From Methanofastidiosum sp. (GTDB taxonomy: Archaea > Methanobacteriota_B > Thermococci > Methanofastidiosales > Methanofastidiosaceae): a stretch of DNA of 64,000 nucleotides. The stretch covers positions 7,387 through 71,386 of the forward strand of contig JBAYOH010000001.1 in the NCBI GenBank assembly GCA_041678455.1. Reading direction: 5' to 3'. The notes under the pieces are model-generated. The model saw nothing but the letters and a program-made list of their open reading frames with translations. It did no database searches and was not told the DNA's origin. Position numbers and translations under genes: made by a program. Numbering within the stretch: the stretch's first letter is position 1; each line of letters starts with the position of its first letter. Below, one piece after another: positions 5,610-21,448 of this stretch.

Positions 5610-6965
5610 TTATTTCTTGCTATACTTTAAACAACTACCAATGAATTTTTGTGGGATCTCTGGAGATGTGGCAAAGTGGAGATGCAAATAAGAGGCAATG
5701 GTTTTTTTTGATACTAAGCCATCCTTCCCATCTTGAATGCCAACTCCTCTTTTCATCTCATATGCGAAGCTATCTTCATTTAAGCTTGAAACTCTTGAAT
5801 AGTGAAACTCGTGACCCCTGATTATATCGTTTTTTTTGGAAAGGATATTGTCCTTGGTGACCTTTACTTCTGCATAACCTAGGGCCTGTCTTCTTTCGGT
5901 CATTTCAATATCAGCGTCAAAGATTCCTACCATCTTAAAGGACTTGCCATCTAGGTTTACTAGTCTCTTGCAGAGGTACATTAGACTGCCACATTCCGCA
6001 TATATTGGAATTTCATCCTCAGATTTCCCCCTTATGGCAGACATTAAGGACTTATTAGCTTCAAGTTCTTTTGCAAATATCTCTGGATATCCCCCGCCCA
6101 TGTAAATGCCATCTACATCAGGGAGTTTTCCTGTGAGAGGGGAAAAGAATTCGATATCAGCACCATAAGATTTTAGGATTTCAAAGTTATCCCAATAATA
6201 AAAATTGAAGGCATTATCAAATGCAACTCCAATTTTAATTTTTTTGTCCTCTTTACCAAATAAGGATCTACCTGTGTACTCAAGCTCTTCGGCATTTTTT
6301 GAAATTTCAATTAATCTGTCTATGTTAACATTATCTTGGACTAAACCCTTAATTATTTCATATTTTTCTGGATTATATAACTCATCAGGAGGAACTAGGC
6401 CCAAATGTCTTGAATATAAAATTTTCTCTTTAACACGAGGTATGCCTCCAAGACACTCGACCCCTCTTAACGACTGCTTTAGATAATTTAGATGTTTATC
6501 GCTTCCAATATTATTGAATATAACTCCGGCTATGTTTACATCAGGATCATATTTCTGGAATCCCATAGCAATTGCACCAAGACTTCTGGCAGACCCTCTT
6601 GAATCTAAAACTAGAATGACCGGAGATTTTAATAATTTTGATAGGTGGGCTGTACTTCCCTTTTCATTTACACCATCTATCCCATCATAAAAACCCATTA
6701 CGCCCTCTATGACTGAAATATCCTTTTTTTCTGATGCTTTTAGAAAAATTTCTAGAATAGACTCTTCAAACATCCATGTGTCCAAATTTCGTGATTTATT
6801 TCCAGTCACGATGTTGTGATGCATTGTGTCAAGAAAATCTGGGCCCGCTTTGAAAGGCTGGACAGAAAGACCTCTTTCCTTTAATGATAGAAGTATTCCG
6901 GTTGTAATAAGAGATTTACCCACTCCACTTCGCTCGCCAGCAATTACGAAACGTGGAATTTTCAT
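5610..6965 (-). CDS. cbiA: Cobyrinate a,c-diamide synthase CbiA/CobB
   Basis: 451 aa. N-terminal GERSGVGKS P-loop and a C-terminal GATase (CGSLMYL). Confidence 0.9.
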   Translation of the reverse strand: MKIPRFVIAGERSGVGKSLITTGILLSLKERGLSVQPFKAGPDFLDTMHHNIVTGNKSRNLDTWMFEESILEIFLKASEKKDISVIEGVMGFYDGIDGVNEKGSTAHLSKLLKSPVILVLDSRGSARSLGAIAMGFQKYDPDVNIAGVIFNNIGSDKHLNYLKQSLRGVECLGGIPRVKEKILYSRHLGLVPPDELYNPEKYEIIKGLVQDNVNIDRLIEISKNAEELEYTGRSLFGKEDKKIKIGVAFDNAFNFYYWDNFEILKSYGADIEFFSPLTGKLPDVDGIYMGGGYPEIFAKELEANKSLMSAIRGKSEDEIPIYAECGSLMYLCKRLVNLDGKSFKMVGIFDADIEMTERRQALGYAEVKVTKDNILSKKNDIIRGHEFHYSRVSSLNEDSFAYEMKRGVGIQDGKDGLVSKKTIASYLHLHFATSPEIPQKFIGSCLKYSKK

Positions 6966-7852: not shown

Positions 7853-8896
7853 ATGAATTATGAGGAGGTAATTGGCAAAATTAAACCAATAGACAAAGAT
7901 TCTATGGAAAAAACTCAGAAGAAATTAGATAATCTTACAAAACCACCTGGAAGCCTTGGTAGGCTCGAAGAGTTAGCAAAGGAAATTGCCGGGATGAAAG
8001 AGACTTCAAATCCTTCTATTTCAAAAAAGGCAATATTCATATTTGCAGGGGATCATGGAGTTACTGATGAAGGAGTTTCTGCGTATTCAAAAACTGTAAC
8101 AGCTCAGATGGTCTACAATTTTGTAAGAGGAGGAGCTGCGATCAATGTTCTATCTAAAGCTATAGACGCAGAACTTATAGTTGCAGATCTTGGTGTTGCT
8201 GGAGATATATCCTCTGACAGAGTCATTATAAAAAAAGTTGGATATGGAACAAATAACTTCTGCAAGGGACCCGCAATGACAAGGGAAAATGCAATTAAAT
8301 CAATTAACTATGGAATAGAGATATTCAATCAATTCGGCCCATATGACATAATTGGTATTGGAGAAATGGGGATTGGAAACACTACACCTTCTTCTGCAAT
8401 AGCATCTGTTTTTACAGATGCCCCCGTTGAAGATGTTACTGGGAGAGGTACAGGTGTTGGTGACGATGCATACAAAAACAAGGTAAAAATAATCAAAAAA
8501 TCAATAGAATTAAACAAACCTGACAAAAATGACCCAATTGACGTTCTATCAAAGATAGGAGGATATGAAATAGGTGGTCTTGTGGGGGTAGTACTAGCAG
8601 CAGCTATGAAAAGGACACCTGTAGTAATAGATGGCTTCATATCAACAGCTGCTGCACTGATTGCTTCCAAGATGAATTCAAATGTATCTGGCTACATAAT
8701 ACCATCTCATAACTCTGTTGAGATAGGCCATATTAAGATGCTTGAGCAGATGAAAAAGAAACCGTTGTTTGAACTGGATATGAGACTTGGAGAAGGTACT
8801 GGTGCTGCAATTGGCATTTCAATCTGCGAAATGTCACTGAAACTATTAAACGAAATGGCTACTTTTGACGATGCCGGTGTTTCAAAAAAGGATTAA
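7853..8896 (+). CDS. cobT: Nicotinate-nucleotide--dimethylbenzimidazole phosphoribosyltransferase CobT (archaeal type)
   Basis: 347 aa. Motifs PPGSLGRLEELA, FAGDHGV, GEMGIGNTT. GGAG lies 5 nt upstream of the ATG. Confidence 0.9.
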   Translation: MNYEEVIGKIKPIDKDSMEKTQKKLDNLTKPPGSLGRLEELAKEIAGMKETSNPSISKKAIFIFAGDHGVTDEGVSAYSKTVTAQMVYNFVRGGAAINVLSKAIDAELIVADLGVAGDISSDRVIIKKVGYGTNNFCKGPAMTRENAIKSINYGIEIFNQFGPYDIIGIGEMGIGNTTPSSAIASVFTDAPVEDVTGRGTGVGDDAYKNKVKIIKKSIELNKPDKNDPIDVLSKIGGYEIGGLVGVVLAAAMKRTPVVIDGFISTAAALIASKMNSNVSGYIIPSHNSVEIGHIKMLEQMKKKPLFELDMRLGEGTGAAIGISICEMSLKLLNEMATFDDAGVSKKD

Positions 8897-9504
8897 TCAC
8901 TTCTATTTAATATATCCAAATCTTTTTTTGTATTTATATTAGGATATTCTTTTATGTTTTCTAAAATTATTATCTCCTCTTCCATTGGCCCATTTATCAA
9001 TTTCCCATCAATAATGTTTATCCCAAGAGGTACAACTTCAATACCATTATGTATAAAGTAGGATGTAACTGAAAATTCTTTCATTAACTTCTTTGGAATC
9101 ATCAAAGAAAGTGCAGGTTTATTCACTTTTCTATAAAGTTCCAAAATATCTTGAATTATAGATTTAGAAATTAAAGGAAGATCTCCAGAAACAATTAATA
9201 ATGGCTCAAAAAGTTTTTTCTCGTTTACTGCCCACGCCATATCTTCGATGAATCCAATGCCAGAAGTTTTAATAATTGAAATATTTTTGTTGGACCCATA
9301 TTCATTAATTAGGTATTCCTTTGTATTTGGAGAATTATCTGAAACTAGTAAAAATATTTTTTCAATTTTATCGGAGCCAATCAAAGTATCGACAACATTC
9401 TTTATGATTGGATTACCTTTGTATTGGGACAGTAATTTTTCCTCAAATAAGGAAAATCTTTCTCCTTTGCCCCCACACATAACTAGTGCTTTCATAAAAA
9501 CCAC
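8893..9504 (-). CDS. cobY: Adenosylcobinamide-phosphate guanylyltransferase CobY (archaeal nucleotidyltransferase)
   Basis: 203 aa. N-terminal MCGGKGERF nucleotidyltransferase motif. Sits in the cob nucleotide-loop operon, and its 3' end overlaps cobT convergently by 4 nt. Confidence 0.8.
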   Translation of the reverse strand: MVFMKALVMCGGKGERFSLFEEKLLSQYKGNPIIKNVVDTLIGSDKIEKIFLLVSDNSPNTKEYLINEYGSNKNISIIKTSGIGFIEDMAWAVNEKKLFEPLLIVSGDLPLISKSIIQDILELYRKVNKPALSLMIPKKLMKEFSVTSYFIHNGIEVVPLGINIIDGKLINGPMEEEIIILENIKEYPNINTKKDLDILNRSD

Positions 9505-10232
9505 TGTGAAAATATCAAAAAGACAAGTATCGCTATCCTAGAAAATTCTATCCCCACACCAATCAGATCTCCATTCACAAATCCAAATTCTTTTTTAACA
9601 AATAATAGGTAAATCAACGAGAAAAGAACTAAGACTAAGAAAGATAAAATTCCTTTAATCCCAAACAACATTGAAATAACAAAGGCTAATATTAGAGAAA
9701 AAATGAATTTTGAAGGCTTCATCTCTCTTATAAAAAGGAGCCCCATCCCTTTATTTAGGGGTTTTCCTAGTCTTAAAAGAAAACAAGCACACACTCTGGA
9801 TAGAAATTCTGCTAAAAGGACATATTGAAAAATAGCAATTCTCTCAAATGACTTTATTTCATAAAATGCTGCTATGAGTAAGAATACTGTAAAAAATCCA
9901 GAAAGAATTGAACCTGTGCCTATGAATCTATCCTTCATTATCTCTGCCCTTCTACTTTTATCTCTAACAAAAAGGGCATCACCCATATCAACTGCGCCAT
10001 CGATATGATGAAATCCTTCTAATAACAAAATAAAAAAGACACTCAAAATTGAAAAAAATATTCTTGACGGGAGGTATGACAATAAATACACTATTGATGC
10101 AGAGATTAATCCAATAATTAAACCTACCAATGGGTATAGAAAAGCGCCTTTAGCTGCACCTTCTATTGTTCTGTTGCTTCCTAAAGGTAAAATTGATGAA
10201 AACGCAAGAAGGTCAAGGAAATTTCTAATCAT
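9492..10232 (-). CDS. cobS: Adenosylcobinamide-GDP ribazoletransferase (cobalamin synthase) CobS
   Basis: 246 aa polytopic membrane protein. HHIDGAVDMGDALF matches the CobS DGxxDxxD motif. Confidence 0.85.
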   Translation of the reverse strand: MIRNFLDLLAFSSILPLGSNRTIEGAAKGAFLYPLVGLIIGLISASIVYLLSYLPSRIFFSILSVFFILLLEGFHHIDGAVDMGDALFVRDKSRRAEIMKDRFIGTGSILSGFFTVFLLIAAFYEIKSFERIAIFQYVLLAEFLSRVCACFLLRLGKPLNKGMGLLFIREMKPSKFIFSLILAFVISMLFGIKGILSFLVLVLFSLIYLLFVKKEFGFVNGDLIGVGIEFSRIAILVFLIFSQWFL

Positions 10233-11344
10233 CTATTTATCCCCTGAAATATTTTTGATGAAATTCCTGCAATGAGCCCGCCCAAAGCATCGTCCATAAA
10301 TGGTCCAAGCCCACCTATTATACCAGGTTTAATCCTTTCAACTCTTCTAAACTCAAATATCCCCCTATACCCTCCAATATATGATGCTATTGCGTCCCCT
10401 ATGGCTTCGTCAGCGATTAAATGAATGGGATCTTTTTCAAACTCACTTTTTGGAAGTCCTGGAATTATCCCTCTATATCCATCTTCCTCTGCTCTCAAAC
10501 CTGCAATAATAAGTGAAGAAACGTTAGGCTCCTTAAGATAGTATTCAAGTTCATTTTGGAATAATGACTTGAACTCATCTCTAGTTATATCATCATTGTC
10601 AATGAAAAGCTCCATTTCTGCTTTTATGATATCTTCTAAAAAAATACCCCTCTCCTTAAGCCTAGATGCCAAACTTCTCTGAGGATTATTTTTATCATAT
10701 ATTACCAGAGAATTATAAACTCCTTCATATACAAGTTCCCCTAGTGTTTTCCCTATTTTCGTTCCAGTTGACATGTACCTTTCTTTTTTGCCATTTCCAG
10801 TTGATGCAATTAAAGCGGAATCTGTAGTTGTACCTGTAGCATTTCTGTAAGAATTAACGCTTCTTATGTCAAGATCAAGTAGCGCCCGGGTCTTAGCTTC
10901 AGTCATTGTTATAATCCCCCCTACATACGCCTCTTCCTCTAAATTGGCATCTATTATTGCATAGATATTTATTGTGCAGGGTGTTAAAACAGAAGTTATT
11001 TCACCTGCTAAGGAAGCATTAGAAACACCTGCAGTAAGAAAAACTAAAACATTATTTTCTTCTTTGATAAATAAGTTCTTTACATCACATGCTGTCATCA
11101 TTCCAACTGAATCTATTGATCCTATTTTCTTTTCTACTTGCTGAAGATCTTTTTCAGGATTTTCAGAAATATAGTTTTTTTCTACTTTTTTCCCAATAAG
11201 TGTTCTGGTAAATTTCTTGCCCCCTCCAAGGATTGCAGAGCTATATGCCTTAAGGGATTCATCTGACTCAACTACAAAGAAATCATCATAAATTCTAAGT
11301 TTTACTTTGCCAGAAAGAAAACTCTTTTCCTTCAATATTTTCAT
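10229..11344 (-). CDS. cbiZ: Fusion of CbiZ (adenosylcobinamide amidohydrolase, N-terminal ~220 aa) with a PgpA-like domain (CobZ-type alpha-ribazole-phosphate phosphatase, C-terminal ~150 aa)
   Basis: N-terminal CbiZ motifs: SSAILGGG, LTAGVSNAS, ATGTTTDSAL. C-terminal PgpA-like motifs: FRRVERIKPGIIGGLGPFMDDALGGLIAG. CbiZ-CobZ fusions are known from Methanosarcina. Confidence 0.65.
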   Translation of the reverse strand: MKILKEKSFLSGKVKLRIYDDFFVVESDESLKAYSSAILGGGKKFTRTLIGKKVEKNYISENPEKDLQQVEKKIGSIDSVGMMTACDVKNLFIKEENNVLVFLTAGVSNASLAGEITSVLTPCTINIYAIIDANLEEEAYVGGIITMTEAKTRALLDLDIRSVNSYRNATGTTTDSALIASTGNGKKERYMSTGTKIGKTLGELVYEGVYNSLVIYDKNNPQRSLASRLKERGIFLEDIIKAEMELFIDNDDITRDEFKSLFQNELEYYLKEPNVSSLIIAGLRAEEDGYRGIIPGLPKSEFEKDPIHLIADEAIGDAIASYIGGYRGIFEFRRVERIKPGIIGGLGPFMDDALGGLIAGISSKIFQGINR

Positions 11345-12288
11345 GTGAATCCTCCAACTTTAAGTGGTAGTGGCAATAGGTATATTATAATTAAAACTAA
11401 TGCAAATGATACTATAGTTGATAGGAAATACAATTTTAAAGCCTTTCTCACTATTAGTGTATCTTCAAAATCAATCCCATCACCTAGGACATAATAGCCC
11501 TTCTTTTCAAGTTTAACGCCGAATATTCCAGCATATAGGGACATTATATGGCCGGAGTTTGGACTTTCAGTTGTATTATGGTATTTTCGGTAGGTTTCAA
11601 ATGATCTTTTTAAAGGATAGTTAAAAATCAAAGAACAGAATAAGGTAATTAAAACGCCAATTCGTGAAGGAATAAAATTTAAAACATCGTCAAATCTTGC
11701 TGAAATTTTTCCAAATAAAATATACCTCTCATTTTTATACCCAATCATTGAGTCAAGTGTATTTACAGCCCTAAATACTAGGCACCCATAAAACCCAAAT
11801 ATCATGAAAAAAAAGAGTGGGGATACAATGCTGTCAATAAATGATTCTCCAATACATTCAAGATTTCCTGATAGGATATGATATCTGTCAAGCTTTTTTG
11901 TATCTCTTGAAACGATGAAAGAAAGATACTTTCTAGCACCGTCTAAATCATTTTTTTCCATTGGAGTAATTATTCTCTTTGTAGCCCTTCCCATCTCATT
12001 TATTGAAAAGGTACTTTTTAAGATAAATACGGCTATTGGGAAGAAAATATAGATTGGAGCATAGATATAGATCAAATTCAGGACAAATCCTATTGATAAT
12101 GCAATTAGAACTGTAAAAAATGTAAGAAGGCCACCCATCAGAATAGAGTTTTTCCAAAATTTTTTCTCAAAGTAGCTGATAAATTTTCCAAATAATATCG
12201 TTGGGTGGATAAAAAGTGGCTTTTCTCCAATGATAAAATCATAAATAAGTGCTGAAATGATAATTGCAGCAAGTATCAATTTATCCAT
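11341..12288 (-). CDS. cbiB: Adenosylcobinamide-phosphate synthase CbiB (membrane protein)
   Basis: 315 aa. CbiB/CobD membrane-family signatures; sits in the operon. Confidence 0.85.
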   Translation of the reverse strand: MDKLILAAIIISALIYDFIIGEKPLFIHPTILFGKFISYFEKKFWKNSILMGGLLTFFTVLIALSIGFVLNLIYIYAPIYIFFPIAVFILKSTFSINEMGRATKRIITPMEKNDLDGARKYLSFIVSRDTKKLDRYHILSGNLECIGESFIDSIVSPLFFFMIFGFYGCLVFRAVNTLDSMIGYKNERYILFGKISARFDDVLNFIPSRIGVLITLFCSLIFNYPLKRSFETYRKYHNTTESPNSGHIMSLYAGIFGVKLEKKGYYVLGDGIDFEDTLIVRKALKLYFLSTIVSFALVLIIIYLLPLPLKVGGFT

Positions 12289-13354
12289 GCAATAACTCCG
12301 CCAAAGCCCCTATAAGAATCTCGTTTTCTTTTCTAGTTCTAACTGCTATCCTGATGCCACTGTCAATGCCTCTAAAGCTAGAGCAGTCCCGTACGAGGAT
12401 ACCTTTTTCATACAATTGAGATTTTATATTCGGAGAATCATCTATTTCAATGAATAGAAAGTTGGCATTTGAAGGATAGACTTTTAGTTCCAACGCCTTT
12501 AATCTTTCGAATAAAAACTCTCTTTCTTTTGAAATTGATAAAATCGTTTCATTGACAAAATCATTGCATTTTATAATATTTTCACCAATTATTTTTGCAA
12601 ATGCATTGATATTCCAGGTTAATCTCATGTTATCAAGAACTTTTGAAACTCTTTCTGATGAAACCCCAAATCCTAGTCTGATTCCTGCAACGCCTATTAT
12701 TTTCGTAAGAGAACGGGATACTATTAAGTTATCAAATGAATTTGTGAGTGAAACAAGTGAGTTCTCTTCGGAGAATTCAATGAATGCCTCATCAATCAAA
12801 ATTGGTATATCTTTTTTATTTAATATTTCAACTAAATCAATCAGGCCTTTCTTTTTAACAACTGTGCCATATGGATTATTTGGATTGGTCAAGAAAATAC
12901 ATGATGTTCTATCGTTTATTTTTCTTAAAATTTCATCAATATTAATCTGGCCTTTTTTTAGAGAAACGCTTGTTGGGATACCTCCCTTTATTAGGACAAG
13001 CTTTTCATATTCTCCGAAGGAGGGCGATGGTATAATAACTTCTGATTTTAGTTCAACAAAAGTATCAGCAAATAATTTTATGAACTCAAGTGACCCATTA
13101 GTTGGGATTATTTGATTTTGATTTACGCCAACATATCCAGCAAGAGATTTTTTTAAATTTATTAGAGAATTGTCAGGATATTCACTTATCTTATTTTTAG
13201 TAATATTGGCATTAAGTAAATCTATCAATATTTTGGGGGGGCCATGAGGATTAATATTTGAGGAAAAATCTAATTTATCTTCACTATTTTTTTTCCCTCC
13301 ATGAACTACCTGAGGAATTTTACTTAGTTCTTCTAACTTTTTTTTATATGTCAC
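12281..13354 (-). CDS. cobD: Class I/II aminotransferase-fold enzyme, most likely L-threonine-O-3-phosphate decarboxylase CobD (a histidinol-phosphate aminotransferase paralog)
   Basis: 357 aa PLP-fold protein directly upstream of cbiB in the cob operon. Context favours CobD over HisC. Confidence 0.65.
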   Translation of the reverse strand: MTYKKKLEELSKIPQVVHGGKKNSEDKLDFSSNINPHGPPKILIDLLNANITKNKISEYPDNSLINLKKSLAGYVGVNQNQIIPTNGSLEFIKLFADTFVELKSEVIIPSPSFGEYEKLVLIKGGIPTSVSLKKGQINIDEILRKINDRTSCIFLTNPNNPYGTVVKKKGLIDLVEILNKKDIPILIDEAFIEFSEENSLVSLTNSFDNLIVSRSLTKIIGVAGIRLGFGVSSERVSKVLDNMRLTWNINAFAKIIGENIIKCNDFVNETILSISKEREFLFERLKALELKVYPSNANFLFIEIDDSPNIKSQLYEKGILVRDCSSFRGIDSGIRIAVRTRKENEILIGALAELLHG

Positions 13355-13434: not shown

Positions 13435-14130
13435 TTAGATTCTCTCTATTGAAAATCTCTTTTTGTAGCGTGATAATATTTTTATTGTACGCTCTCCTAT
13501 TACTGCAACGAACATGCCATTAGCAAATGCATGGGATGTTTCCCACCAGAAACTTAGTAAATATGTCTGTATAAGTGTTTCAATTGTATGTGGTTTCACG
13601 AAAAATGCATAATGCCAGATATTCATTATCCACCCATACATATACCCCCAAAATATACCAAATGCCATAAGTAGTTTTATGTTGATTTTCTTGCCTTCCA
13701 AATATCCTGCAAAAAGCCCCGGGAGTCCCCAAGCAATCATTTGAAATGGGGTCCACGGCCCTTGACCCAAAAAAAAATTTGATACTAAAGGAGTCAATGC
13801 ACCGACAAAAAATCCTGCGGTGGGCCCAAACACAAGTCCTGTGCATATGACCAAAGTTGTACATGGCTGTATTCCAGGTAGAGTTGCAAAGGGAACCCTC
13901 AGAACAGAAGATATACCTGCTAACATGGAGATGAGAGTTAAATTTTTTGAACTTAAAGATTTTCTTTCAAATTCATGAAAAAAAGATATTATTATTAATA
14001 AAAAAATTCCAATTATCTCATAAGGCCAGTATCTTATTATGGCCCTTGATTTATCAAGAAATAAAGCAGTTCCAAACATGATGATATTAATTGAAATGAA
14101 AATCAAGGGAAAATAATAATTATTTTTCAT
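13435..14130 (-). CDS. ECF transporter substrate-specific (S) component; candidate corrinoid/cobinamide-specific (CbrT-like) by context
   Basis: 231 aa, about 6 TM. Gly/Pro-rich S-component-like core (GIQPCTTLVICTGLVFGPTAGFFVGA...WGLPGLFAGY). Overlaps ecfA by 4 nt. It is not CbiM-like: there is no MHIPDG-type N-terminus. Confidence 0.55.
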   Translation of the reverse strand: MKNNYYFPLIFISINIIMFGTALFLDKSRAIIRYWPYEIIGIFLLIIISFFHEFERKSLSSKNLTLISMLAGISSVLRVPFATLPGIQPCTTLVICTGLVFGPTAGFFVGALTPLVSNFFLGQGPWTPFQMIAWGLPGLFAGYLEGKKINIKLLMAFGIFWGYMYGWIMNIWHYAFFVKPHTIETLIQTYLLSFWWETSHAFANGMFVAVIGERTIKILSRYKKRFSIERI

Positions 14131-15779
14131 GTTAAAACTTCCAAAATTTCATCGAGTGTAAGTATATTATCTGGAATTCCATTTTTGGCATAAGGTTGTA
14201 TTAGGCGATTGATCTGTGGTGAGAATAGTAAAGCTTTGGATAAAACTTCTCTCCTATATCCATCGGTCACTACTTTACCTTCGCTAAGAAGTATAACTCT
14301 GTTTGAAAATTGTGCTGCAGTTTCAACATCATGAGTTACCATTATTACAGTTTTGTTCCTTTTTCTAAGATAATTAATTAGTTTCATTTTAATAGGGTAA
14401 TCCAATCCACGTGTAGGCTCATCTAAGATTAATATATCTGGGTCACCAACTAAAACTGAAGCAATGGCTACCCTCTGTTTTTCTCCACCTGACAAATCTA
14501 GAGGATAAGAATATTTGTATTGTGATATCCCAAATTCATCCATTATTTGGGTTACTTTTGTTTCAATAGTATCGGCGTCTTGGCCCAAATTCTTCAAAAC
14601 AAATCCAATCTCTTCTTCAACTGTTTCATTAAATAAATGCAAGTTTGGATCCTGGAAAACAATTCCTACTCTTTTTATAATTTCACTTGAAGAATAATCC
14701 TCTATTTTTTTACCGTATAAACTAATACTCCCTTTACGTTGTTTAAGTATGCCATTTATCAATTTGATGAGTGTTGTTTTACCACTGGCATTTTTTCCCA
14801 TGATAGATAATTGGTCTCCCTCCCTTAATGATAAATTAATATTTTTTAAAATATCATTTGCCCCATCATAAGAAAAATATACATTTTTCATCGAAAGAAT
14901 TTCTCTCCCCAAAGATTTTTCCTCTGGTAAATCTATAATATTGTTCATTGAACTTAGTAATTCTTTTAATGTGGTCCTTGCTTCCTTTACAGTTAAAGGC
15001 AGTTCATGATTATTCAATTTATCTGCAAATCGAAGTGAGAGTTCAGTTACTGGAGGCAATCCAATTCTCCAGTTTTTTCTTTCATTATAATTTATCTTTC
15101 TTGGGTTGTCATCAAAGATTATCTTAGAATCTTGTAGGATCAACATCCTATCAACATGATGGACCACCCTTTCCAATCTATGCTCAATTAATATAACAGT
15201 TATGCCAAGTTCATCATTAATTTTTTCGATGATATTAAGAATACTTTCAGCTGCTGCTGGATCTAATTCAGATGTAGGTTCATCCAATAATAAGATTTCT
15301 GGATGTACTGCTAGGGCAGAAGCGATAGCTACTTTTTGTTTTTGACCTCCTGAAAGATTGGAGGGATTTTCATGTCTTATCCTAGATACTCCAACAGCTT
15401 CAATCGCTTCTTCAATCCTCTTAGCTATGAGATCCGGTGAAAAACATAGATTTTCCAGAGCAAATGCTATCTCTCTTTCAACTTCATTTGTTATAAGTTG
15501 ATTTTCAGGATCTTGAAATACCATCCCCACTTTTTCTGAAAGTATATTTGTTGGAGTTTCAGAAACTTTTTTTCCAGAGACAGTTACATCTCCTTTTATT
15601 TTACCCCCATAAAAATGTGGAATTAATCCATTTATGGATCTAATAAATGTTGACTTGCCACATCCAGATGGCCCAGTAACTAAGACAAATTCTCCTTCAT
15701 CAATTGAGATGTTTATATCAGACAAGCTTGGAGAATCGTTATCCTTATACCAAAATGATAAATTGTCAAACTCAATCAT
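14127..15779 (-). CDS. ecfA: ECF transporter ATPase, fused duplicated EcfA-EcfA' (two ABC cassettes; CbiO-like)
   Basis: 550 aa with two Walker A sites (GPSGCGKST and GKNASGKTT), two LSGGQ/LSGGEKQR signatures and two Walker B/H-loop sets. Confidence 0.9.
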   Translation of the reverse strand: MIEFDNLSFWYKDNDSPSLSDINISIDEGEFVLVTGPSGCGKSTFIRSINGLIPHFYGGKIKGDVTVSGKKVSETPTNILSEKVGMVFQDPENQLITNEVEREIAFALENLCFSPDLIAKRIEEAIEAVGVSRIRHENPSNLSGGQKQKVAIASALAVHPEILLLDEPTSELDPAAAESILNIIEKINDELGITVILIEHRLERVVHHVDRMLILQDSKIIFDDNPRKINYNERKNWRIGLPPVTELSLRFADKLNNHELPLTVKEARTTLKELLSSMNNIIDLPEEKSLGREILSMKNVYFSYDGANDILKNINLSLREGDQLSIMGKNASGKTTLIKLINGILKQRKGSISLYGKKIEDYSSSEIIKRVGIVFQDPNLHLFNETVEEEIGFVLKNLGQDADTIETKVTQIMDEFGISQYKYSYPLDLSGGEKQRVAIASVLVGDPDILILDEPTRGLDYPIKMKLINYLRKRNKTVIMVTHDVETAAQFSNRVILLSEGKVVTDGYRREVLSKALLFSPQINRLIQPYAKNGIPDNILTLDEILEVLT

Positions 15780-16698
15780 AACTTATCCTCCACTTAAACA
15801 TTAATACAGGAATAACAATGACTTCAAGTAAAAATAGTATCAAAATATCTCTAATTTCAGAACTAGATTTTATTAATGGATCAACTTTTTGATAAAAGAT
15901 AAAACTTCCCTGACCTTTTGTCAACATGTATGCAGACATTAGGAGGGGTAAAAGAATAATTACCATTATAATGTACTCAGAGGGAGAGATATTGATCTCA
16001 TTAAAATAGGTTCTTTTTGGAAATCTTCCAAAGGCACGCGATTCCATCGATTCGGCCAATTGAAAACTTCTTTCCAAACTTTTTGACAAAAGAGGAAAGA
16101 AAATGGTAGCGTAATTTATTATTTTTTCTTTCATTTTACTCTTATTAAAGTCTACCCCCCTTGATCTCTGAACATCGACAATGTCATTAAAATCTCTTAA
16201 TAATATAGGTACAAATTTAGTTGTAAGGGTAGTAATCATTGTTGACTTATAGGGAAATTTAAGTTTAGTAACTGCCCTCATCAAATCGTCAGGATTTGTC
16301 GTTAGATTTATGACAGTAAAAGCCCCTAGAATTGCACCAAGTCGGATGCACATAGTCGATCCAAACATTATTTCTTCCAAAGTTATGTTAAATCTACCAA
16401 AGGCAGGTAAGGTGAATGATGTTTGCCAAAGTACAGTTTCCCCATTTCCATTTACGATTACATTAAATAAGATAATGAATGGAAAAAATAATATTGCCAA
16501 TTTTAAAAATCCAATCCATTCTCTTGTGATTTTTGATAAGACAGCAAATAGAAAAGAGGATATGAACAAAGTCAATAAGATGAGAGGATGCTCAAAAAGA
16601 ATAGAAACTAATATCACTGTAAGAAGCCATGATATTTTTATGAAAGGAGAACATTTGTGGAAAGGTGAATTTTTAAATTTGTATAAGAGGGATACCAT
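15772..16698 (-). CDS. ecfT: ECF transporter transmembrane (T) component EcfT/CbiQ
   Basis: 308 aa polytopic membrane protein at the head of the ecfT-ecfA-S operon. Confidence 0.8.
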   Translation of the reverse strand: MVSLLYKFKNSPFHKCSPFIKISWLLTVILVSILFEHPLILLTLFISSFLFAVLSKITREWIGFLKLAILFFPFIILFNVIVNGNGETVLWQTSFTLPAFGRFNITLEEIMFGSTMCIRLGAILGAFTVINLTTNPDDLMRAVTKLKFPYKSTMITTLTTKFVPILLRDFNDIVDVQRSRGVDFNKSKMKEKIINYATIFFPLLSKSLERSFQLAESMESRAFGRFPKRTYFNEINISPSEYIIMVIILLPLLMSAYMLTKGQGSFIFYQKVDPLIKSSSEIRDILILFLLEVIVIPVLMFKWRISYD

Positions 16699-16709
16699 TT
16701 AACTACCTA

Positions 16710-16726
16710 GGATGGCTAAGCCATCC
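16710..16726. promoter_or_regulatory. Palindrome GGATGG-ctaag-CCATCC (site 1), 12 nt upstream of the ecfT start codon. Candidate operator.
   Basis: Read directly from the sequence. Shares its half-sites with site 2 at 16836..16856. Confidence 0.4.
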
Positions 16727-16835
16727 ATACTTTTAAACATTTCTACAATTTCTAAAACTAACTGTGTTTTTCTAAAAAAAATTCAATATACAAACTAAAA
16801 AGAAAACTTTATATATATAGAGGTAAAATCACTTA

Positions 16836-16856
16836 ATGGATGGCGACACCATCCAT
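16836..16856. promoter_or_regulatory. Palindrome ATGGATGG-cgaca-CCATCCAT (site 2), about 20 nt upstream of the SD/ATG of the DUF4430 gene. Candidate operator.
   Basis: Read directly from the sequence. Same GGATGG-N5-CCATCC core as site 1, 128 bp away, facing the divergent transcription unit. Confidence 0.4.
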
Positions 16857-16877
16857 AAATTAAATGGAGGTAAGAAA

Positions 16878-17843
16878 ATGGGAGAAAAGAATAGCTTATA
16901 CTTGGTTCTAGGTATAGTCTTTTTATTATTGGCAACTCCTATGACTCTACTGGCCGATTCATCAAGTTTTTCAGATATGGAAGACAGTTTCGTGAGAAAT
17001 ACGTCTTTTGTAACGGGGGAATCTGGAAACTCAATGGATTTGCTAGCTAGGGATACAGTTTCTAAGACCTTTCAATCCCAAGGACTACTTTATGGTGTTT
17101 CAGATGATAAATCCGCACCAAAGGATAGGAACCTTGTTCTAATTGGGGGTCCTGAAGTAAACTCGTTGACAAAGGAGTACAATGATATCTTTGGAATCAA
17201 GTATGAAGAAAATGAGGATACAGTTTTTATCACTGTTGATGGAACTACCGTATCAAGAAAAAAACTCAGCATAACTGAGGACATAGGGATTGTATATATT
17301 GGAAAGGCAAATAACAAGAGTATCCTTATGCTTTGGGGCGGTGCTAGAGAAGGAACATTTGCTGCAGGACTCATAATGGGAAATTCGGGGAACTGGCAGA
17401 AATACGGGAATTCTGAATATCTTCTTTTGAGATGGAATGATAACAATGGAGATAGTTTTGTACAGGAATCGGAGATCCTAGTTACATCTCAATCACCGGC
17501 AACAGCAGTGACAACAGATAATGGAAAAGACCAAGATCGGGTGACAGTGACAATAACTGCTGACTTTGGAGAAGGATATTCGAAAGAATGGAAAGATGTC
17601 AAGGTATCAAAAGACGCTACAGTTTTTGATGCCATGAAAGCCTCTGGAATGCAGTTTGATTACAATATCCAATCTTTTGGCGCATTCATTACGTCAATTG
17701 AAGGGTTGGGCGAAAATAGATCTACAGGAAAATACTGGCAATACTGGATTAATGGGAACTATGCTCAGCTCGGTGTGTCAAATCAAAAAGTTTCAGATGG
17801 TATTACAATCGAATGGAGATATACAGATGCATTCTTTAGTTAG
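16878..17843 (+). CDS. Membrane-anchored extracellular corrinoid-binding protein with a C-terminal DUF4430 (transcobalamin/BtuG-like B12-binding) domain
   Basis: The C-terminus SFGAFITSIEGLGENRSTGKYWQYWINGNYAQLGVSNQKVSDGITIEWRY matches the DUF4430 signature (G.YW.Y.VNG....G......DGD.I.W.Y). Start moved to 16878 (MGEKNSLYLVLGIVFLLLA, a signal/TM helix) because GGAGGT lies 7 nt upstream; the track ATG at 16836 has no SD and lies inside the palindrome. Confidence 0.7.
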   Translation: MGEKNSLYLVLGIVFLLLATPMTLLADSSSFSDMEDSFVRNTSFVTGESGNSMDLLARDTVSKTFQSQGLLYGVSDDKSAPKDRNLVLIGGPEVNSLTKEYNDIFGIKYEENEDTVFITVDGTTVSRKKLSITEDIGIVYIGKANNKSILMLWGGAREGTFAAGLIMGNSGNWQKYGNSEYLLLRWNDNNGDSFVQESEILVTSQSPATAVTTDNGKDQDRVTVTITADFGEGYSKEWKDVKVSKDATVFDAMKASGMQFDYNIQSFGAFITSIEGLGENRSTGKYWQYWINGNYAQLGVSNQKVSDGITIEWRYTDAFFS

Positions 17844-17855
17844 AGGTGAAAACAA

Positions 17856-20783
17856 ATGAAGAAAATAATAACAACTTTAATTTTAGTGGCTTTCCTGGTT
17901 TCGCTAGCGCCAAGCTATTCGGCAGAGGAACTTCCAGATAGAAATTTCTTTATTGACGAAAATGGAAATCCCCAATGTTTGATAGTATTGAGTGAATCTG
18001 CTACTGCAAAGGATATACAGAAGGTAGCAGAAATTGTGACAAAAATCACAAATGAAACATACTATAGTGTGACGGGTACCGATGAGAAGATCATATGGGA
18101 ATCGCCAAGCTTAGTTGAAGATGACCACGATAATGTTGCACTTGGTTATACTGGAGTTAAGTCAAATCCGGATTGGGTATGGGAGATGAGAAGCTTTACA
18201 ACACCTGCCTATTTCTTCTCACACGGCGGAGATCCTGCTCCCGATTGGCCAAATTGTCCATTCTATGTAGAGAGTGTTGAAGCTTTATTTGATGGAGATA
18301 GAAATACAAGGATTGTAGGTAGAACTGGATATGATTATTCAGGGCCAAACTATGCACCCGTTACATTAATAGTTAAATTCAACGAAACAAAGAAAATTTC
18401 TGATGTTAACTTCACATTTGAAAATCTCCCCGTTGCTGCAGGATATCAAATATATTACTTAAACTCTGACTGCCCAAACCCCTTATATGATCCTTCTATG
18501 TGGATGTACGGTCCAACTGGAAACTGGACTTTGTTACCGGTTAGTGGCGGCTGGCCACGCCCAGGAAGCGCTACTAAGATGACAGATAGTTTTTCATTGA
18601 TTAATCCTGTGAACACAAATGCATTATTTATTGAACTTAATCCAGAGTATTATACTCCTCCAAATCCAACTATGCCTTACTCATTGTATGAGATTGAGGC
18701 GAAGGGCAGTTCATTCTCAATATTATATGGAAACTCTTATTACATTGACTTCTCCTGGGCACGTAAAACACCTGGCCAAAATAAGAATCTTCTAAAAAAC
18801 TTTGACTATTGGATTGAGGATATAAAGGAAACATTACCTGGTGACTTTATTCAAACTGCGGGAAAGAGTTACTCAAGTGAAACTGCAAGCTATAATCTTC
18901 TAAATCACCAGATAAATCTTCTAAGGATGTATAAATATAACAAGGATGAGATTTTCCAAGACAAGGCAGTGGGAAGGGTATTCTATGGAACACCAAGAAC
19001 ATGGGAGAATGAGGAATTCAAGGTTGGCCAAACAAAGACTTATGGTAATTACAAAGTTAAACTAGTTGATATCAACTGGGACAAGAGCCAAACTACTGTT
19101 AATTTTGACCATAAAACTGGAAGATATTATCTTGGTGAACAGAAAACTACAATTGAAGTTACAGATCCTGAAGGCAACACTAAAACACATATTATGAGAG
19201 TTAACTGCTGCGATAATGTTTTAGCTGAACTCTTTGTAAACACTGAAGCAGAGTCCTTGGCAGCTACAAAGGCCATTTGCAGATTAAAGACTGAAGGATA
19301 CCTTTGCGATATTACTCCAATAATTTACCATTCAAATATGAGTGAATCAAACATTGACCCATTTTACAATAGCGAATCAAAAGACCATTTTAGCATGGGT
19401 GATGATGGCGCATGGACCTATACCTATATCTATGGGTATGGATATGACTATAATTCAGCACTTAGTTATCCTACCTTGATATTCAATGGAAATAAATCAA
19501 AAGCCATTCAAAAGATATCCCCAAACACAGAAGATGTATATTATGAAGCGTTTAAAAATGCGTATGAAGCAAATGCTAGCAGATGTTGTGATGCAAACAT
19601 AATCATAAACACTAATATGGATCCTGAGAGATTTACAACAACAAAAGATAGGGAAGCCTTAGTAACTGTAAGATTGAATAAAGATCTACCAAACACAGAA
19701 CTATATCTAAATGTGTGGAGCATTGACTGCAGTTGTTGTGCTCCTGTTGCTACTGGGCTTATAAATTCACAACACTGGCAGAATATCAATAAATGGACGA
19801 CAGAATGTGGTGAAAAAGTTACCGAGACAACTTGGAAAGATCTAAAAAATGGTGATGTTTACAGGACAGAAATAAATCTATGTGGTACAAATTACTGCGG
19901 ACTTATTGCGTTCCTACAAGACAAAAACACTGGGAAGATTTACGGCTCTGCAATTAGACATTTTCCCCCTGCGCCGGGATCAAACTTGTCACCCGGCATA
20001 GCGTCGTCTGATTGTCAATGTGTAATTGAGTACAACAAGGACCTAGATTGTGATAATTATAAGGAAGAGGTTGAGTTTGCAATTGAAGGTGCCGATGTAG
20101 CATTCGTTGGGATGGAGCATGATTTAGAAAAGAATATTGATGGTGAGATAAAGAAACATATGATAGCAAGATTCAATATTTACACAGTGACTGATTACGG
20201 ATGCATCGATGACTGTGACTGTAACTACATTCAAAATGACGGCTCCATGTGGAAACTAAGATTTTTGATGAACGATGGCAATCTCTATAATCCTTATGTT
20301 GATAGATGTCAAGACTGTACAAAAGATCTTCGTTCAATTAAAATCGAGCTCTGTGAGCCAATACCATTTGACTGCCTTAAAGAAGGTGCAGTGTTCTGGG
20401 GCCCAGACAGGTACTTTAGAGTCTATGTTGAGGACTATGATGAAGAGAAATACTATATCAAATACAAGATACAGAGTGTAGATGAGATTCCAAAGAAAGA
20501 AGCAGTCAATGTGAATGTTGAGCCAACTAACTTGATAAGAATAGACAAGCAGATTACAGCAAGTGATAGAGCAAAGTACAATATGATCCTGATTGGAAAC
20601 AAGGACAACAATGAAGAGATAAAGAGAGTCTATGATATCGGAAACTTCACCGACTCTGAAGGCATGATATACCTAAAAGAGATCTACGGCAAAAAGGATA
20701 TACTCATCCTGAATGCAGCCAATGTCTCTGATCTAAACGAGCCGATCAAACAGCTTTCATATCTTCTTGATATGATACTATAA
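17856..20783 (+). CDS. Large secreted Cys-rich surface (glyco)protein with a signal peptide, many N-x-S/T sequons and a discoidin/galactose-binding-like segment; function unknown
   Basis: 975 aa. Signal peptide MKKIITTLILVAFLVSLAPSYSA. ALFDGDRNTRIV...YQIYYLNSD...NWTLL resembles an F5/8-type-C fold. The C-terminal LIGNKDNN...ILILNAANVSD motif resembles LVLIGGPEVN... in the DUF4430 protein. GAGGTGA SD upstream. Confidence 0.55.
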   Translation: MKKIITTLILVAFLVSLAPSYSAEELPDRNFFIDENGNPQCLIVLSESATAKDIQKVAEIVTKITNETYYSVTGTDEKIIWESPSLVEDDHDNVALGYTGVKSNPDWVWEMRSFTTPAYFFSHGGDPAPDWPNCPFYVESVEALFDGDRNTRIVGRTGYDYSGPNYAPVTLIVKFNETKKISDVNFTFENLPVAAGYQIYYLNSDCPNPLYDPSMWMYGPTGNWTLLPVSGGWPRPGSATKMTDSFSLINPVNTNALFIELNPEYYTPPNPTMPYSLYEIEAKGSSFSILYGNSYYIDFSWARKTPGQNKNLLKNFDYWIEDIKETLPGDFIQTAGKSYSSETASYNLLNHQINLLRMYKYNKDEIFQDKAVGRVFYGTPRTWENEEFKVGQTKTYGNYKVKLVDINWDKSQTTVNFDHKTGRYYLGEQKTTIEVTDPEGNTKTHIMRVNCCDNVLAELFVNTEAESLAATKAICRLKTEGYLCDITPIIYHSNMSESNIDPFYNSESKDHFSMGDDGAWTYTYIYGYGYDYNSALSYPTLIFNGNKSKAIQKISPNTEDVYYEAFKNAYEANASRCCDANIIINTNMDPERFTTTKDREALVTVRLNKDLPNTELYLNVWSIDCSCCAPVATGLINSQHWQNINKWTTECGEKVTETTWKDLKNGDVYRTEINLCGTNYCGLIAFLQDKNTGKIYGSAIRHFPPAPGSNLSPGIASSDCQCVIEYNKDLDCDNYKEEVEFAIEGADVAFVGMEHDLEKNIDGEIKKHMIARFNIYTVTDYGCIDDCDCNYIQNDGSMWKLRFLMNDGNLYNPYVDRCQDCTKDLRSIKIELCEPIPFDCLKEGAVFWGPDRYFRVYVEDYDEEKYYIKYKIQSVDEIPKKEAVNVNVEPTNLIRIDKQITASDRAKYNMILIGNKDNNEEIKRVYDIGNFTDSEGMIYLKEIYGKKDILILNAANVSDLNEPIKQLSYLLDMIL

Positions 20784-20836: not shown

Positions 20837-21448
20837 TTGATTGATATGTTTGAGAGAAGGATAATCCCACAGGCAAACTTCACCAATGCAGACATCCTAA
20901 TCGCGCTAAAGATTATCGAGAAGGAGGATGGCATAGGGAGAAAGCTTCTTTCAAAGAGAATTTTTCTAAATGAGGCTAGCATTAGATCAATCCTTTCCAA
21001 ACTAAAGGATATGGAATACATTGATTCATCAAGAGTTGGCCAGAAGATCACAGGGAAGGGCAAGAAGTTCCTAGAAAGCTCTACAAAATTTGGTATCCCC
21101 TCAGAAATCAACGCCAAAGAGCTGACCTTGAATAACAAAAACTTCGGTACAATAATAAAGGGCGCATCGTTAAAAATAAAGGATGGAATGGACCAGAGGG
21201 ACAGAGCGGTCTTTGGCGGGGCAAGGTCTGCAATCACCCTGATATTTAGAGATAATCAATTTGCCCTCCCAGAAACAAGGCCTGAGATAAAAATCCCGAC
21301 AATAAAACTGAATTTGAGTAGGGCCTTAGAAACTGAACTCCATGATAAATTTGGCCCTAAAAATAACGATATAGTCATAATATCAAGTGCAGAAGATGAA
21401 GAGCGTGCATTTAGAGGGATAGTCCACGTGATTGACTCTTTTATTTAA
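20837..21448 (+). CDS. Predicted DNA-binding protein with an N-terminal winged-helix domain and a C-terminal domain of unknown function (regulator-like)
   Basis: 203 aa. ILIALKIIEKEDGIGRKLLSKRIFLNEASIRSILSKLKDMEYI is wHTH-like. The real start may be ATG 20846 (MFERR). Confidence 0.4.
   Translation: MIDMFERRIIPQANFTNADILIALKIIEKEDGIGRKLLSKRIFLNEASIRSILSKLKDMEYIDSSRVGQKITGKGKKFLESSTKFGIPSEINAKELTLNNKNFGTIIKGASLKIKDGMDQRDRAVFGGARSAITLIFRDNQFALPETRPEIKIPTIKLNLSRALETELHDKFGPKNNDIVIISSAEDEERAFRGIVHVIDSFI

Follow-up and report, generated by a model that had tools for sequence, protein, structure and literature searches.

Candidate B12-regulon operators at archaeal ecfT and DUF4430 promoters and their association with the DUF4443/PH0730 protein family

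Described regulators and a pair of palindromes in Methanofastidiosum

TrmBL1/Tgr, the regulator of the Thermococcales glycolytic motif TATCAC-N5-GTGATA, is a dimeric archaeal winged helix-turn-helix (wHTH) protein with a C-terminal effector domain, and it follows a positional rule: archaeal operators downstream of the B recognition element (BRE) and TATA box mediate repression and those upstream mediate activation (PMC4158304). Here we describe an element of similar form, a pair of GGATGG-N5-CCATCC palindromes between the divergent ecfT and DUF4430 genes in a 64,000-nucleotide stretch of Methanofastidiosum sp. DNA (GenBank assembly GCA_041678455.1, contig JBAYOH010000001.1, positions 7,387 to 71,386 of the forward strand; this whole stretch is called the window below). 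Like the glycolytic motif it is a 6-bp inverted repeat with a 5-nt spacer; the architecture of TrmBL1/Tgr is the one that we propose for our candidate regulator, a DUF4443 family protein, and we liken the position dependence of the glycolytic sites to that of the sites described below. Each of these two metabolic regulons was also first found by motif conservation. Unlike the TrmBL1/Tgr system, the present one has another half-site, the candidate protein of the window has no TrmB Pfam match (PF01978), and the regulon concerns corrinoid uptake, salvage and biosynthesis instead of sugar metabolism. We conclude that the palindromes are very probably protein-bound regulatory operators of a B12 regulon, and comparison of the sequences makes it reasonably probable that they are bound by a dimeric DUF4443 repressor for which a corrinoid probably serves as the co-repressor.

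Comparison with other vitamin-control systems is also informative. The bacterial cobalamin riboswitch (RF00174) has the same apparent role, feedback on BtuF, ECF-CbrT and cob/cbi genes (ECF, energy-coupling factor), but it is an RNA of about 200 nt in the 5′ untranslated region, whereas the element here is a DNA palindrome of 17–21 bp whose sensor is presumed to be a protein. ThiR (thiamine; ThiN-like domain) and RbkR (riboflavin; riboflavin kinase domain) are archaeal vitamin regulators that came from comparative genomics; they likewise have lineage-wide palindromes at vitamin transport and biosynthesis promoters and regulator genes clustered with their targets, but the DUF4443 effector domain and the vitamin are different. 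CarH/CarA and AerR, which are regulators with corrinoid ligands, have the canonical B12-binding domain PF02310, and B12 serves them mainly for sensing light. A corrinoid ligand is proposed for the window protein as well, but it has no PF02310/PF02607 domain, and its proposed regulon is the B12 supply itself. In 2003 Rodionov and coworkers reportedly predicted a palindromic DNA signal, the "CBL-box", before cobalamin genes of some archaea without B12 riboswitches and ascribed it to a hypothetical regulator, with no protein assigned; this signal may be the same as ATGGATGG-N5-CCATCCAT, the 21-bp form of the present element. The crystal structure of PH0730 from Pyrococcus horikoshii (PDB 2p8t) was deposited as that of a hypothetical protein, without ligand, DNA or function. 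Our search of the literature on DUF4443, the CBL-box and archaeal B12 regulators found nothing relevant, NCBIfam has no model for the regulator, and its Pfam label is still DUF4443. On the accessible evidence, what is new is the connection, seen across archaeal lineages, of this operator with the DUF4443 family and with ECF-CbrT/DUF4430/BtuF regulons; by its predicted function we class the system as a metabolite-responsive archaeal repressor with a new family of B12 sensor.

In the 64 kb (both strands) the exact core GGATGG-N5-CCATCC has only two matches, at 16710–16726 and 16838–16854. Both lie in the 179-bp ecfT-DUF4430 intergenic region (within 16700–16880), one for each transcription unit, as a first-pass annotation made by reading the sequence had placed them. 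That annotation had also found the core nowhere else in the window, and this too is borne out: none of 100 dinucleotide-preserving shuffles of the window contains a match, so that zero are expected by chance. When two mismatches are allowed the window has one further match, which is chance-like, and a scan of the window that tolerated three mismatches in the 14 specified bases found no third operator or other regulon member in the window. The half-site centers within the motif are 11 bp apart, one helical turn. The two operators and the TATA-like sequences next to them are as follows.

16710–16726: core of operator 1, GGATGGCTAAGCCATCC, an exact core match at the ecfT promoter
16708–16728: 21-bp form of operator 1, TAGGATGGCTAAGCCATCCAT, with one flank imperfect
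16836–16856: operator 2 (core 16838–16854), ATGGATGGCGACACCATCCAT, a perfect inverted repeat (8+8, spacer of 5 nt) located at the DUF4430 promoter
16730–16737, minus strand: TATA-like box of the ecfT promoter, TTTAAAAG, matching TTTAWATA at 6/8 positions
16808–16819, plus strand: TATA-like run of the DUF4430 promoter, TTTATATATATA, 16 nt before operator 2

Start to start, the two operators are 128 bp apart, as originally measured. Eleven nucleotides, and not the 12 first given, separate operator 1 from the ecfT ATG (16698, minus strand), and 21 nt, in keeping with the first estimate of about 20, separate operator 2 from the DUF4430 ATG at 16878, which is preceded by GGAGGT at 16866–16871. A mechanical list of open reading frames (ORFs) starts the DUF4430 gene 14 codons earlier, at an ATG at 16836 inside operator 2 (MDGDTIHKLNGGKK), and the same peptide start recurs wherever the palindrome precedes an ORF. 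We reject this start as an artefact of the ATG within the palindrome; the Shine-Dalgarno sequence and the signal peptide favor 16878.

Conservation of the palindrome and its place in promoters

The closest relatives of the window EcfT are in Candidatus Methanofastidiosa, and a profile search for EcfT in species-representative genomes yielded nine Methanofastidiosa loci (L001–L009; loci carry L numbers throughout). The first-pass annotation had left room for the region being unconserved in related genomes that keep the genes, but both palindromes are present in the same divergent arrangement in 9/9 of these orthologous loci. Their GGATGG/CCATCC arms are invariant, and their 5-nt spacers differ (CTAGA, CTTGA, CTAAG, CTACA, TGTAG, TGAGA, TGGAG, TGTGG, GGTGA and TGTCG); the EcfT and DUF4430 proteins of these loci are only 51–59% identical to those of the window. 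The equivalent of operator 1 lies 9–11 nt before the ecfT ATG in all nine and is found as well in L210–L212, and that of operator 2 is kept before the DUF4430 gene in L001–L009. The center-to-center spacing of the two is 62–66 bp in the relatives versus 128 bp in the window, and the three closest relatives (L210–L212, EcfT 94%) have the same 128-bp layout as the window. Because the spacing varies between loci we make no claim of looping or cooperativity, and an idea of helical phasing between the two operators was dropped for that reason. In about 250 kb of Methanofastidiosa DNA, all the sites are at ecfT, DUF4430 or a small linked operon. Over 46 distinct sites the core positions are 97–100% conserved, and the spacers vary in Methanofastidiosa.

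With respect to the small linked operon, a third operator, a 21-mer identical to operator 2, occurs in L003 (within 9265–9659) and also in L002, L006, L102, L122, L134, L170 and L192. Directly adjoining it are a TATA-like box and the ATG of a zinc-ribbon protein of about 47 amino acids (aa) with a CxxC...CxxC pattern, and the mini-operon continues with a 41-aa ORF and a 44-aa CxxC...CxxC protein. The mini-operon is conserved, lies downstream of and convergent with ecfS, was missed by gene finders, has no Pfam match and does not occur in the window. In L209 (5790–5939) and L167 (2474–2623) the ecfS/DUF4430/regulator gene cluster has just upstream of it a 49-aa zinc-ribbon ORF (…RCFSCN…KGEDKWVCAKCLPRLIHG) that is not annotated; these two copies are 55% identical, and the loci are probably from Bathyarchaeia.

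A search for enrichment of the motif at B12 genes had been suggested by the first-pass annotation, and our scan of metagenome contigs with the 21-bp form ATGGATGG-N5-CCATCCAT gave at least 119 loci. About 33 of the 119 matches listed are in promoters of corrinoid-related genes, on contigs with GC contents of 0.30–0.63, and 50 of the matches listed are inside long ORFs or in terminator- or REP-like (repetitive extragenic palindromic) hairpins and look random. Random occurrence with no positional bias, the adverse outcome that the annotation had named, was not what we found. Among the corrinoid-linked matches listed, the operator is found at genes for ECF-S/CbrT-like proteins, often with DUF4430 next (L085, L148, L150, L167, L169, L172, L180 and L193); at Peripla_BP_2 (BtuF-like) genes (L100, L125, L154 with CobY and CbiZ, L156 and L157); at a BtuF-like gene divergent from CbiZ (L095) and another divergent from two tetrapyrrole methylases (TP_methylase; L107); at an ECF ATPase divergent from a membrane protein (L109 and L139); at DUF4430 or S-layer/DUF4430 genes (L149 and L153); and at a novel membrane protein plus DUF4430 (L082 and L091). 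The remaining ones include further Methanofastidiosa copies. In L047, which comes from the EcfT genome scan and is outside the 119, the operator is at the gene for a 745-aa transcobalamin-like protein. The spacer outside Methanofastidiosa is usually ATAAT or ATTAT among the matches listed, giving a perfect 21-bp palindrome. Apart from L047, the Bathyarchaeia/Thermoprotei EcfT loci L052–L080 have neither the motif nor the regulator gene, and these probably encode shared ECF modules.

We know of no B12 riboswitches in archaea, and the expectation of the first-pass annotation that any control here would operate without one agrees with the Rfam scan of the window, in which no family reaches its gathering score and there is therefore no cobalamin riboswitch. 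A scan of 14 metagenome loci with conserved flanks likewise gave no Rfam match. The closest bacterial EcfT homologs are from Dehalococcoidia and a Patescibacteria genome. Riboswitches at bacterial EcfT orthologs were considered as support for B12 specificity and did not provide it: ten such loci (L010–L022, L053 and L067; ±6 kb) have no cobalamin riboswitch, and their only Rfam matches are one Moco riboswitch (L053) and tRNAs. The same 16 bases also occur within a multi-hairpin repeat (…aagcttaac…cgcaagtttaaacttgcg…) in L092, L118, L152, L160, L171 and L185, on contigs that look bacterial and have lipoprotein-like and PanC-like neighbors (judged by eye); this repeat matches no Rfam family and seems to be REP-like and unrelated.

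The position of the palindrome relative to the predicted promoter elements is also consistent. In the window, the gap between TTTAAAAG and operator 1 is 3 nt if counted to the 17-bp core and 1 nt if counted to the 21-bp form. The ecfT TATA-like box of the relatives is GTTAAATA, with a gap of 4 nt, and the layout of this promoter is GTTAAATAATAC-GGATGG-N5-CCATCC-AGGGATTAA-ATG. Their DUF4430 promoter reads TTATATATAT-GGATGG-N5-CCATCC-AT...GGAGGA...ATG, and in L001–L009 its TATA box abuts the operator with a gap of 1–3 nt. For 53 promoter-site pairs from all lineages we called TATA-like any 8-mer that matches TTTAWATA at six or more of its eight positions; such an 8-mer is present in 38/53 pairs and ends 1–7 nt before the core in 34 of those 38. 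In 27/53 pairs the start codon is 0–12 nt after the core, often as CCATCCATG, which indicates that the mRNAs of many pairs would be leaderless. Since archaeal TATA boxes are centered near −26, the palindrome would occupy about −22 to −1 of leaderless or short-leader transcripts. From this standard geometry, transcription of ecfT is predicted to start just 3′ of operator 1 and, because operator 2 is 16 nt from the strongest TATA-like run, that of the DUF4430 gene is predicted to start within operator 2. Either position would obstruct RNA polymerase.

A different position is seen at two other kinds of operon. In GC-rich methanogen contigs the palindrome lies in the tfuA-mcrB intergenic region (L179 2274–2294, L103 3716–3736, L116 668–688 and L083 459–479), with differing spacers; the mcrB ATG is about 112 nt further on, and a BRE/TATA-like AAGCTTATATTC follows the palindrome after 4 nt. 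It also precedes a gene for a corrinoid protein (B12-binding plus B12-binding_2 domains; L165 1716–1736, L093 724–744, L145 144–164 and L181), 5–6 nt upstream of a TATA-like box and 70–90 nt before the gene, with a URO-D/MtaA-like methyltransferase gene next. Because the palindrome precedes them, such corrinoid-using operons may join the same regulon. No DUF4443 gene is present on these short mcr and corrinoid-protein contigs, and for that reason the sites remain a lead.

The DUF4443 protein and the genes of the two divergent units

The first-pass annotation had named the wHTH protein at 20837..21448 as a candidate regulator. The protein stands as the candidate, and its start has to be moved: the gene most likely begins at ATG 20846, which gives 200 aa, like its database relatives, and not at TTG 20837. 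Pfam finds a PH0730-like_N/CggR_N winged helix followed by a C-terminal DUF4443 domain. A fold search gives a high-confidence wHTH near the DNA-bound CggR domain and MarR repressors, and the only non-family fold match of the C-terminal domain is the AspRS insertion domain; the search did not point to a ligand. Conservation within the family is highest in the helix-turn-helix, with G31, R32, L41, E43 and R47 invariant in 47 homologs. A profile search found 349 homologs, and an exhaustive hidden Markov model search found 1,514 clusters at 50% identity. Within Methanofastidiosa the protein is 77–94% identical and syntenic wherever the contig extends that far.

DUF4443 is the only DNA-binding protein that recurs beside the operator, and it does so in at least four lineages; for example, in L167 and L193 its gene shares with ecfS and DUF4430 an operon that the operator precedes, and in L149 it is divergent across the operator. 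We also approached the association from the other side by fetching ten homologs with 25–35% identity to the window protein by protein alone, disregarding the motif. ECF-S and/or DUF4430 genes adjoin the DUF4443 homolog in 10/10 of these loci, and the operator or a variant of it is at the adjacent promoter in nine. By homolog (P numbers), the sites are as follows.

P0060, P0068: operator exact
P0066, P0110, P0092, P0129, P0075: conserved hybrid GGATGG-ATTAT-CCAACC
P0157, P0165: variant ATGGTTGG-ATTAT-CTAACCAA, two per locus
P0164: no operator detected

The variant operator (GGTTGG/GGTTAG-N5-CCAACC) occurs in L206 at 4837–4853 and 7927–7943 and in L213 at 2855–2871 and 5932–5948, where the sites precede ecfS-DUF4430 and another secreted DUF4430-like protein. 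The proteins that go with it have the recognition helix EGTTRTLV, versus EGSIRTL- or related sequences in most other homologs examined, a hint from a single lineage that recognition helix and operator may co-vary. In L206 and L213 an RbkR-like gene (MarR plus CTP-dep_RFKase) adjoins the DUF4443 gene, and a MCM/B12-binding/MeaB/CobA cluster 3 kb away has no site. In L210 (250–1726) the 968-aa S-layer-like gene is followed not by the regulator but by the gene of a 277-aa protein that Pfam does not recognize, and then by a HepT/nucleotidyltransferase (MNT) toxin-antitoxin pair.

The window has a GC content of about 35%, and its gene calls were checked by Pfam scan, which agrees with the original description of an ECF-cobalamin salvage operon and a DUF4430 gene on either side of the palindromes. 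The genes of the two units and of the candidate regulator are listed here.

8893..13354, minus strand: cobD-cbiB-cbiZ-cobS-cobY-like cobinamide salvage genes, closely packed with stop and start codons that overlap, downstream of ecfS across a gap of 80 nt
13435..14130, minus strand: ECF S component, CbrT-like (Pfam ECF_trnsprt)
14127..15779, minus strand: ecfA-ecfA′ fused double ATPase with two ABC_tran domains, overlapping ecfT by 8 nt
15772..16698, minus strand: ecfT, a CbiQ family T component (Pfam PF02361, E 3e-28), first gene of its operon, with 51–56% identity to its Methanofastidiosa orthologs
16878..17843, plus strand: secreted S-layer-domain and DUF4430 protein (Pfam DUF4430, E 2e-13, and S_layer_C)
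17856..20783, plus strand: 975-aa secreted S-layer-like protein (Pfam S_layer_C, weak), second gene of its unit
20846..21448, plus strand: DUF4443/PH0730-like winged-helix protein of 200 aa, candidate regulator

Among solved structures the S component is closest to 6fnp_A (E 7.5e-8), its counterpart in ECF-CbrT, and 6FNP is an importer shown experimentally to take up cobalamin and cobinamide (PMC5997447). With a CbrT-homologous S component, EcfT and EcfA/A′, the operon is of the ECF-CbrT type, and its transporter is predicted to be specific for corrinoids. The TCN cobalamin-binding proteins have DUF4430 as their C-terminal domain (PMC4350170), and to the corresponding domain of transcobalamin-1 the DUF4430 protein of the window has a weak match. 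The Pfam domains of the salvage genes are Aminotran_1_2 (a CobD-type aminotransferase), CobD_Cbib, CbiZ, CobS and NTP_transf_3 (CobY-like). No operator was found in the 80-nt gap between ecfS and cobD, and because of this short gap without an operator it is possible that ecfTAS and cobD-cobY are co-transcribed.

The 975-aa protein is syntenic in the relatives and 65–82% identical. Compared with L004 (Methanofastidiosum sp. AnMBR.bin534) the window is mosaic: cobD, cbiB and cbiZ are 94–98% identical, ecfT/A/S and DUF4430 are 54–70% identical, and the 975-aa protein and the regulator are about 78% identical; the ecfT-DUF4430 intergenic region of the window is also twice the length of that in the relatives. 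The identities suggest that the transporter/surface-binder module may have been replaced or have diverged rapidly, with a junction near the ecfS-cobD gap, and the operators have been retained despite this mosaicism.

Proposed control of B12 supply and its alternatives

In the mechanism that we propose, a DUF4443 dimer would bind each GGATGG-N5-CCATCC inverted repeat. The operator would fill the space from TATA box to start or overlap the start, and the bound dimer, because of that position, would stop RNA polymerase recruitment or promoter opening. Two divergent units would be repressed at once, one consisting of ecfT-ecfAA′-ecfS(CbrT-like), possibly reading into cobD-cbiB-cbiZ-cobS-cobY, and the other of the DUF4430 and S-layer-like genes. 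A corrinoid bound by the C-terminal DUF4443 domain is the most likely co-repressor. Sufficient B12 would then shut down uptake and salvage, so that the end product would feed back on both and, in lineages other than this one, on biosynthesis too. The first-pass annotation had already supposed that one transcription factor co-regulates the ECF/salvage operon and the DUF4430 gene, and this is now supported, at the level of sequence, by the conserved sites, their presence at B12-gene promoters and the adjacency of the regulator gene. We infer the physical binding, the dimer stoichiometry, the effector and the sign of regulation from the observed sites, their conservation and promoter position, the content of the regulon and the association with the regulator family.

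Several observations weigh against this proposal or parts of it. Operator 2 is 16 nt away from its best TATA-like run instead of adjoining it, and it may as a result be partly transcribed. The flank conservation of the metagenome matches is partly by construction, since the scan used the window's 16 specified bases, although the gene context of those matches is an independent result. The sites upstream of TATA boxes at the mcr and corrinoid-protein operons are not explained by simple repression. The DUF4443 domain does not resemble the canonical B12-binding domains (no PF02310 or PF02607 by Pfam, using the library that does detect B12-binding domains in the corrinoid proteins of L165 and L093), and it has no invariant His or Cys in 47 sequences. 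One of the ten homolog loci, L209, has no detectable operator; the regulator gene of the window has its own TATA-like promoter without an operator, and so is probably not autoregulated; and in the closest relative, L210, the regulator gene is not adjacent. These last three points would also fit a reading in which the palindromes are real B12-regulon operators of another transcription factor encoded elsewhere, with DUF4443 merely co-localized as a corrinoid chaperone or as a sensor acting on another protein. We consider this unlikely, given that the wHTH fold is near those of DNA-bound CggR and MarR and has invariant helix-turn-helix residues, that DUF4443 is the sole recurrent DNA-binding neighbor of the operator and was found with its B12-related neighbors in every look-up anchored on the protein, and that helix and operator change together in L206 and L213; a different, unlinked factor found no support. 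It could also be that DUF4443 binds but that the signal or the sign is another one (cobalt, a corrin precursor or nutritional state as the signal, an apo-repressor released by its ligand, or an activator at some promoters). The lack of a recognizable B12-binding motif in the effector domain, its nearest non-family match to the AspRS insertion domain, and the mcrB and corrinoid-protein sites, which by the TrmBL1/Tgr rule are in an activator position, all fit such a difference. It nevertheless seems improbable to us, since the regulon is mostly corrinoid-specific (CbrT-like, BtuF-like, DUF4430/transcobalamin-like and CbiZ), among its genes we saw neither a cobalt transporter (CbiM/N) nor any other metal gene, and regulons that combine uptake with biosynthesis are classically feedback-repressed by their end product, as with the bacterial B12 riboswitches.

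Palindromes of this kind might instead act as RNA hairpins at mRNA 5′ ends, affecting stability or translation or serving as the site of an RNA-binding protein. If transcribed, the two in the window would form stable folds (−11.3 and −11.4 kcal/mol, z about −2.6), operator 2 may be partly downstream of the predicted start, and in many lineages the AUG would stand at the foot of the stem. We nonetheless find an RNA element very unlikely. The TATA-like boxes abut the palindrome, so that the predicted start is at or beyond its 3′ end; no compensatory changes are seen, 4/8 pairs are constant and the covariation does not exceed that of shuffles; the one-arm change GGATGG...CCAACC, kept in five loci, breaks a pair without compensation; the element serves genes on either strand and is found upstream of TATA boxes as well; and it has no Rfam match. 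GGATG is a common type IIS recognition sequence, and bacterial contigs have the same 16 bases in unrelated terminator- or REP-like hairpins, so a chance or non-regulatory origin, as the remnant of a mobile element or as paired restriction sites, was also weighed. Conservation effectively refutes it: zero matches are expected in the window, both sites are at the same promoter position in every orthologous locus, and the motif is strongly enriched at B12 gene promoters across lineages. We retain the reading of the palindromes as operators of a B12 regulon with DUF4443 as their predicted repressor.

A broader generalization can be formulated, and we hold it only tentatively, as something that may well prove wrong. 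The DUF4443/PH0730 family (about 1,500 clusters) might be the general B12 sensor-regulator of Archaea, replacing the cobalamin riboswitch; it would recognize ATGGATGG-N5-CCATCCAT and bind a corrinoid through an unrecognized fold, repressing uptake, salvage and biosynthesis genes where the site lies between TATA and start and activating corrinoid-dependent methyltransferase and mcr operons where it lies just upstream of TATA.

Archaea rely on corrinoids for methanogenesis, methyl transfer and ribonucleotide reduction, and to our knowledge their sensing and regulation of B12 supply is essentially undescribed. The present analysis gives archaeal B12 control a widely conserved cis element and a specific candidate regulator. 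The operator is also a marker for B12 genes in uncultured archaea such as Methanofastidiosa and Bathyarchaeia, reaching membrane proteins that lack annotation, surface binders similar to transcobalamin and very small zinc-ribbon proteins. For anaerobic digesters and sediments it thus aids the prediction of corrinoid auxotrophy and cross-feeding. If the sites at the mcr and corrinoid-protein promoters are genuine, they would tie B12 status directly to the expression of methanogenesis genes.

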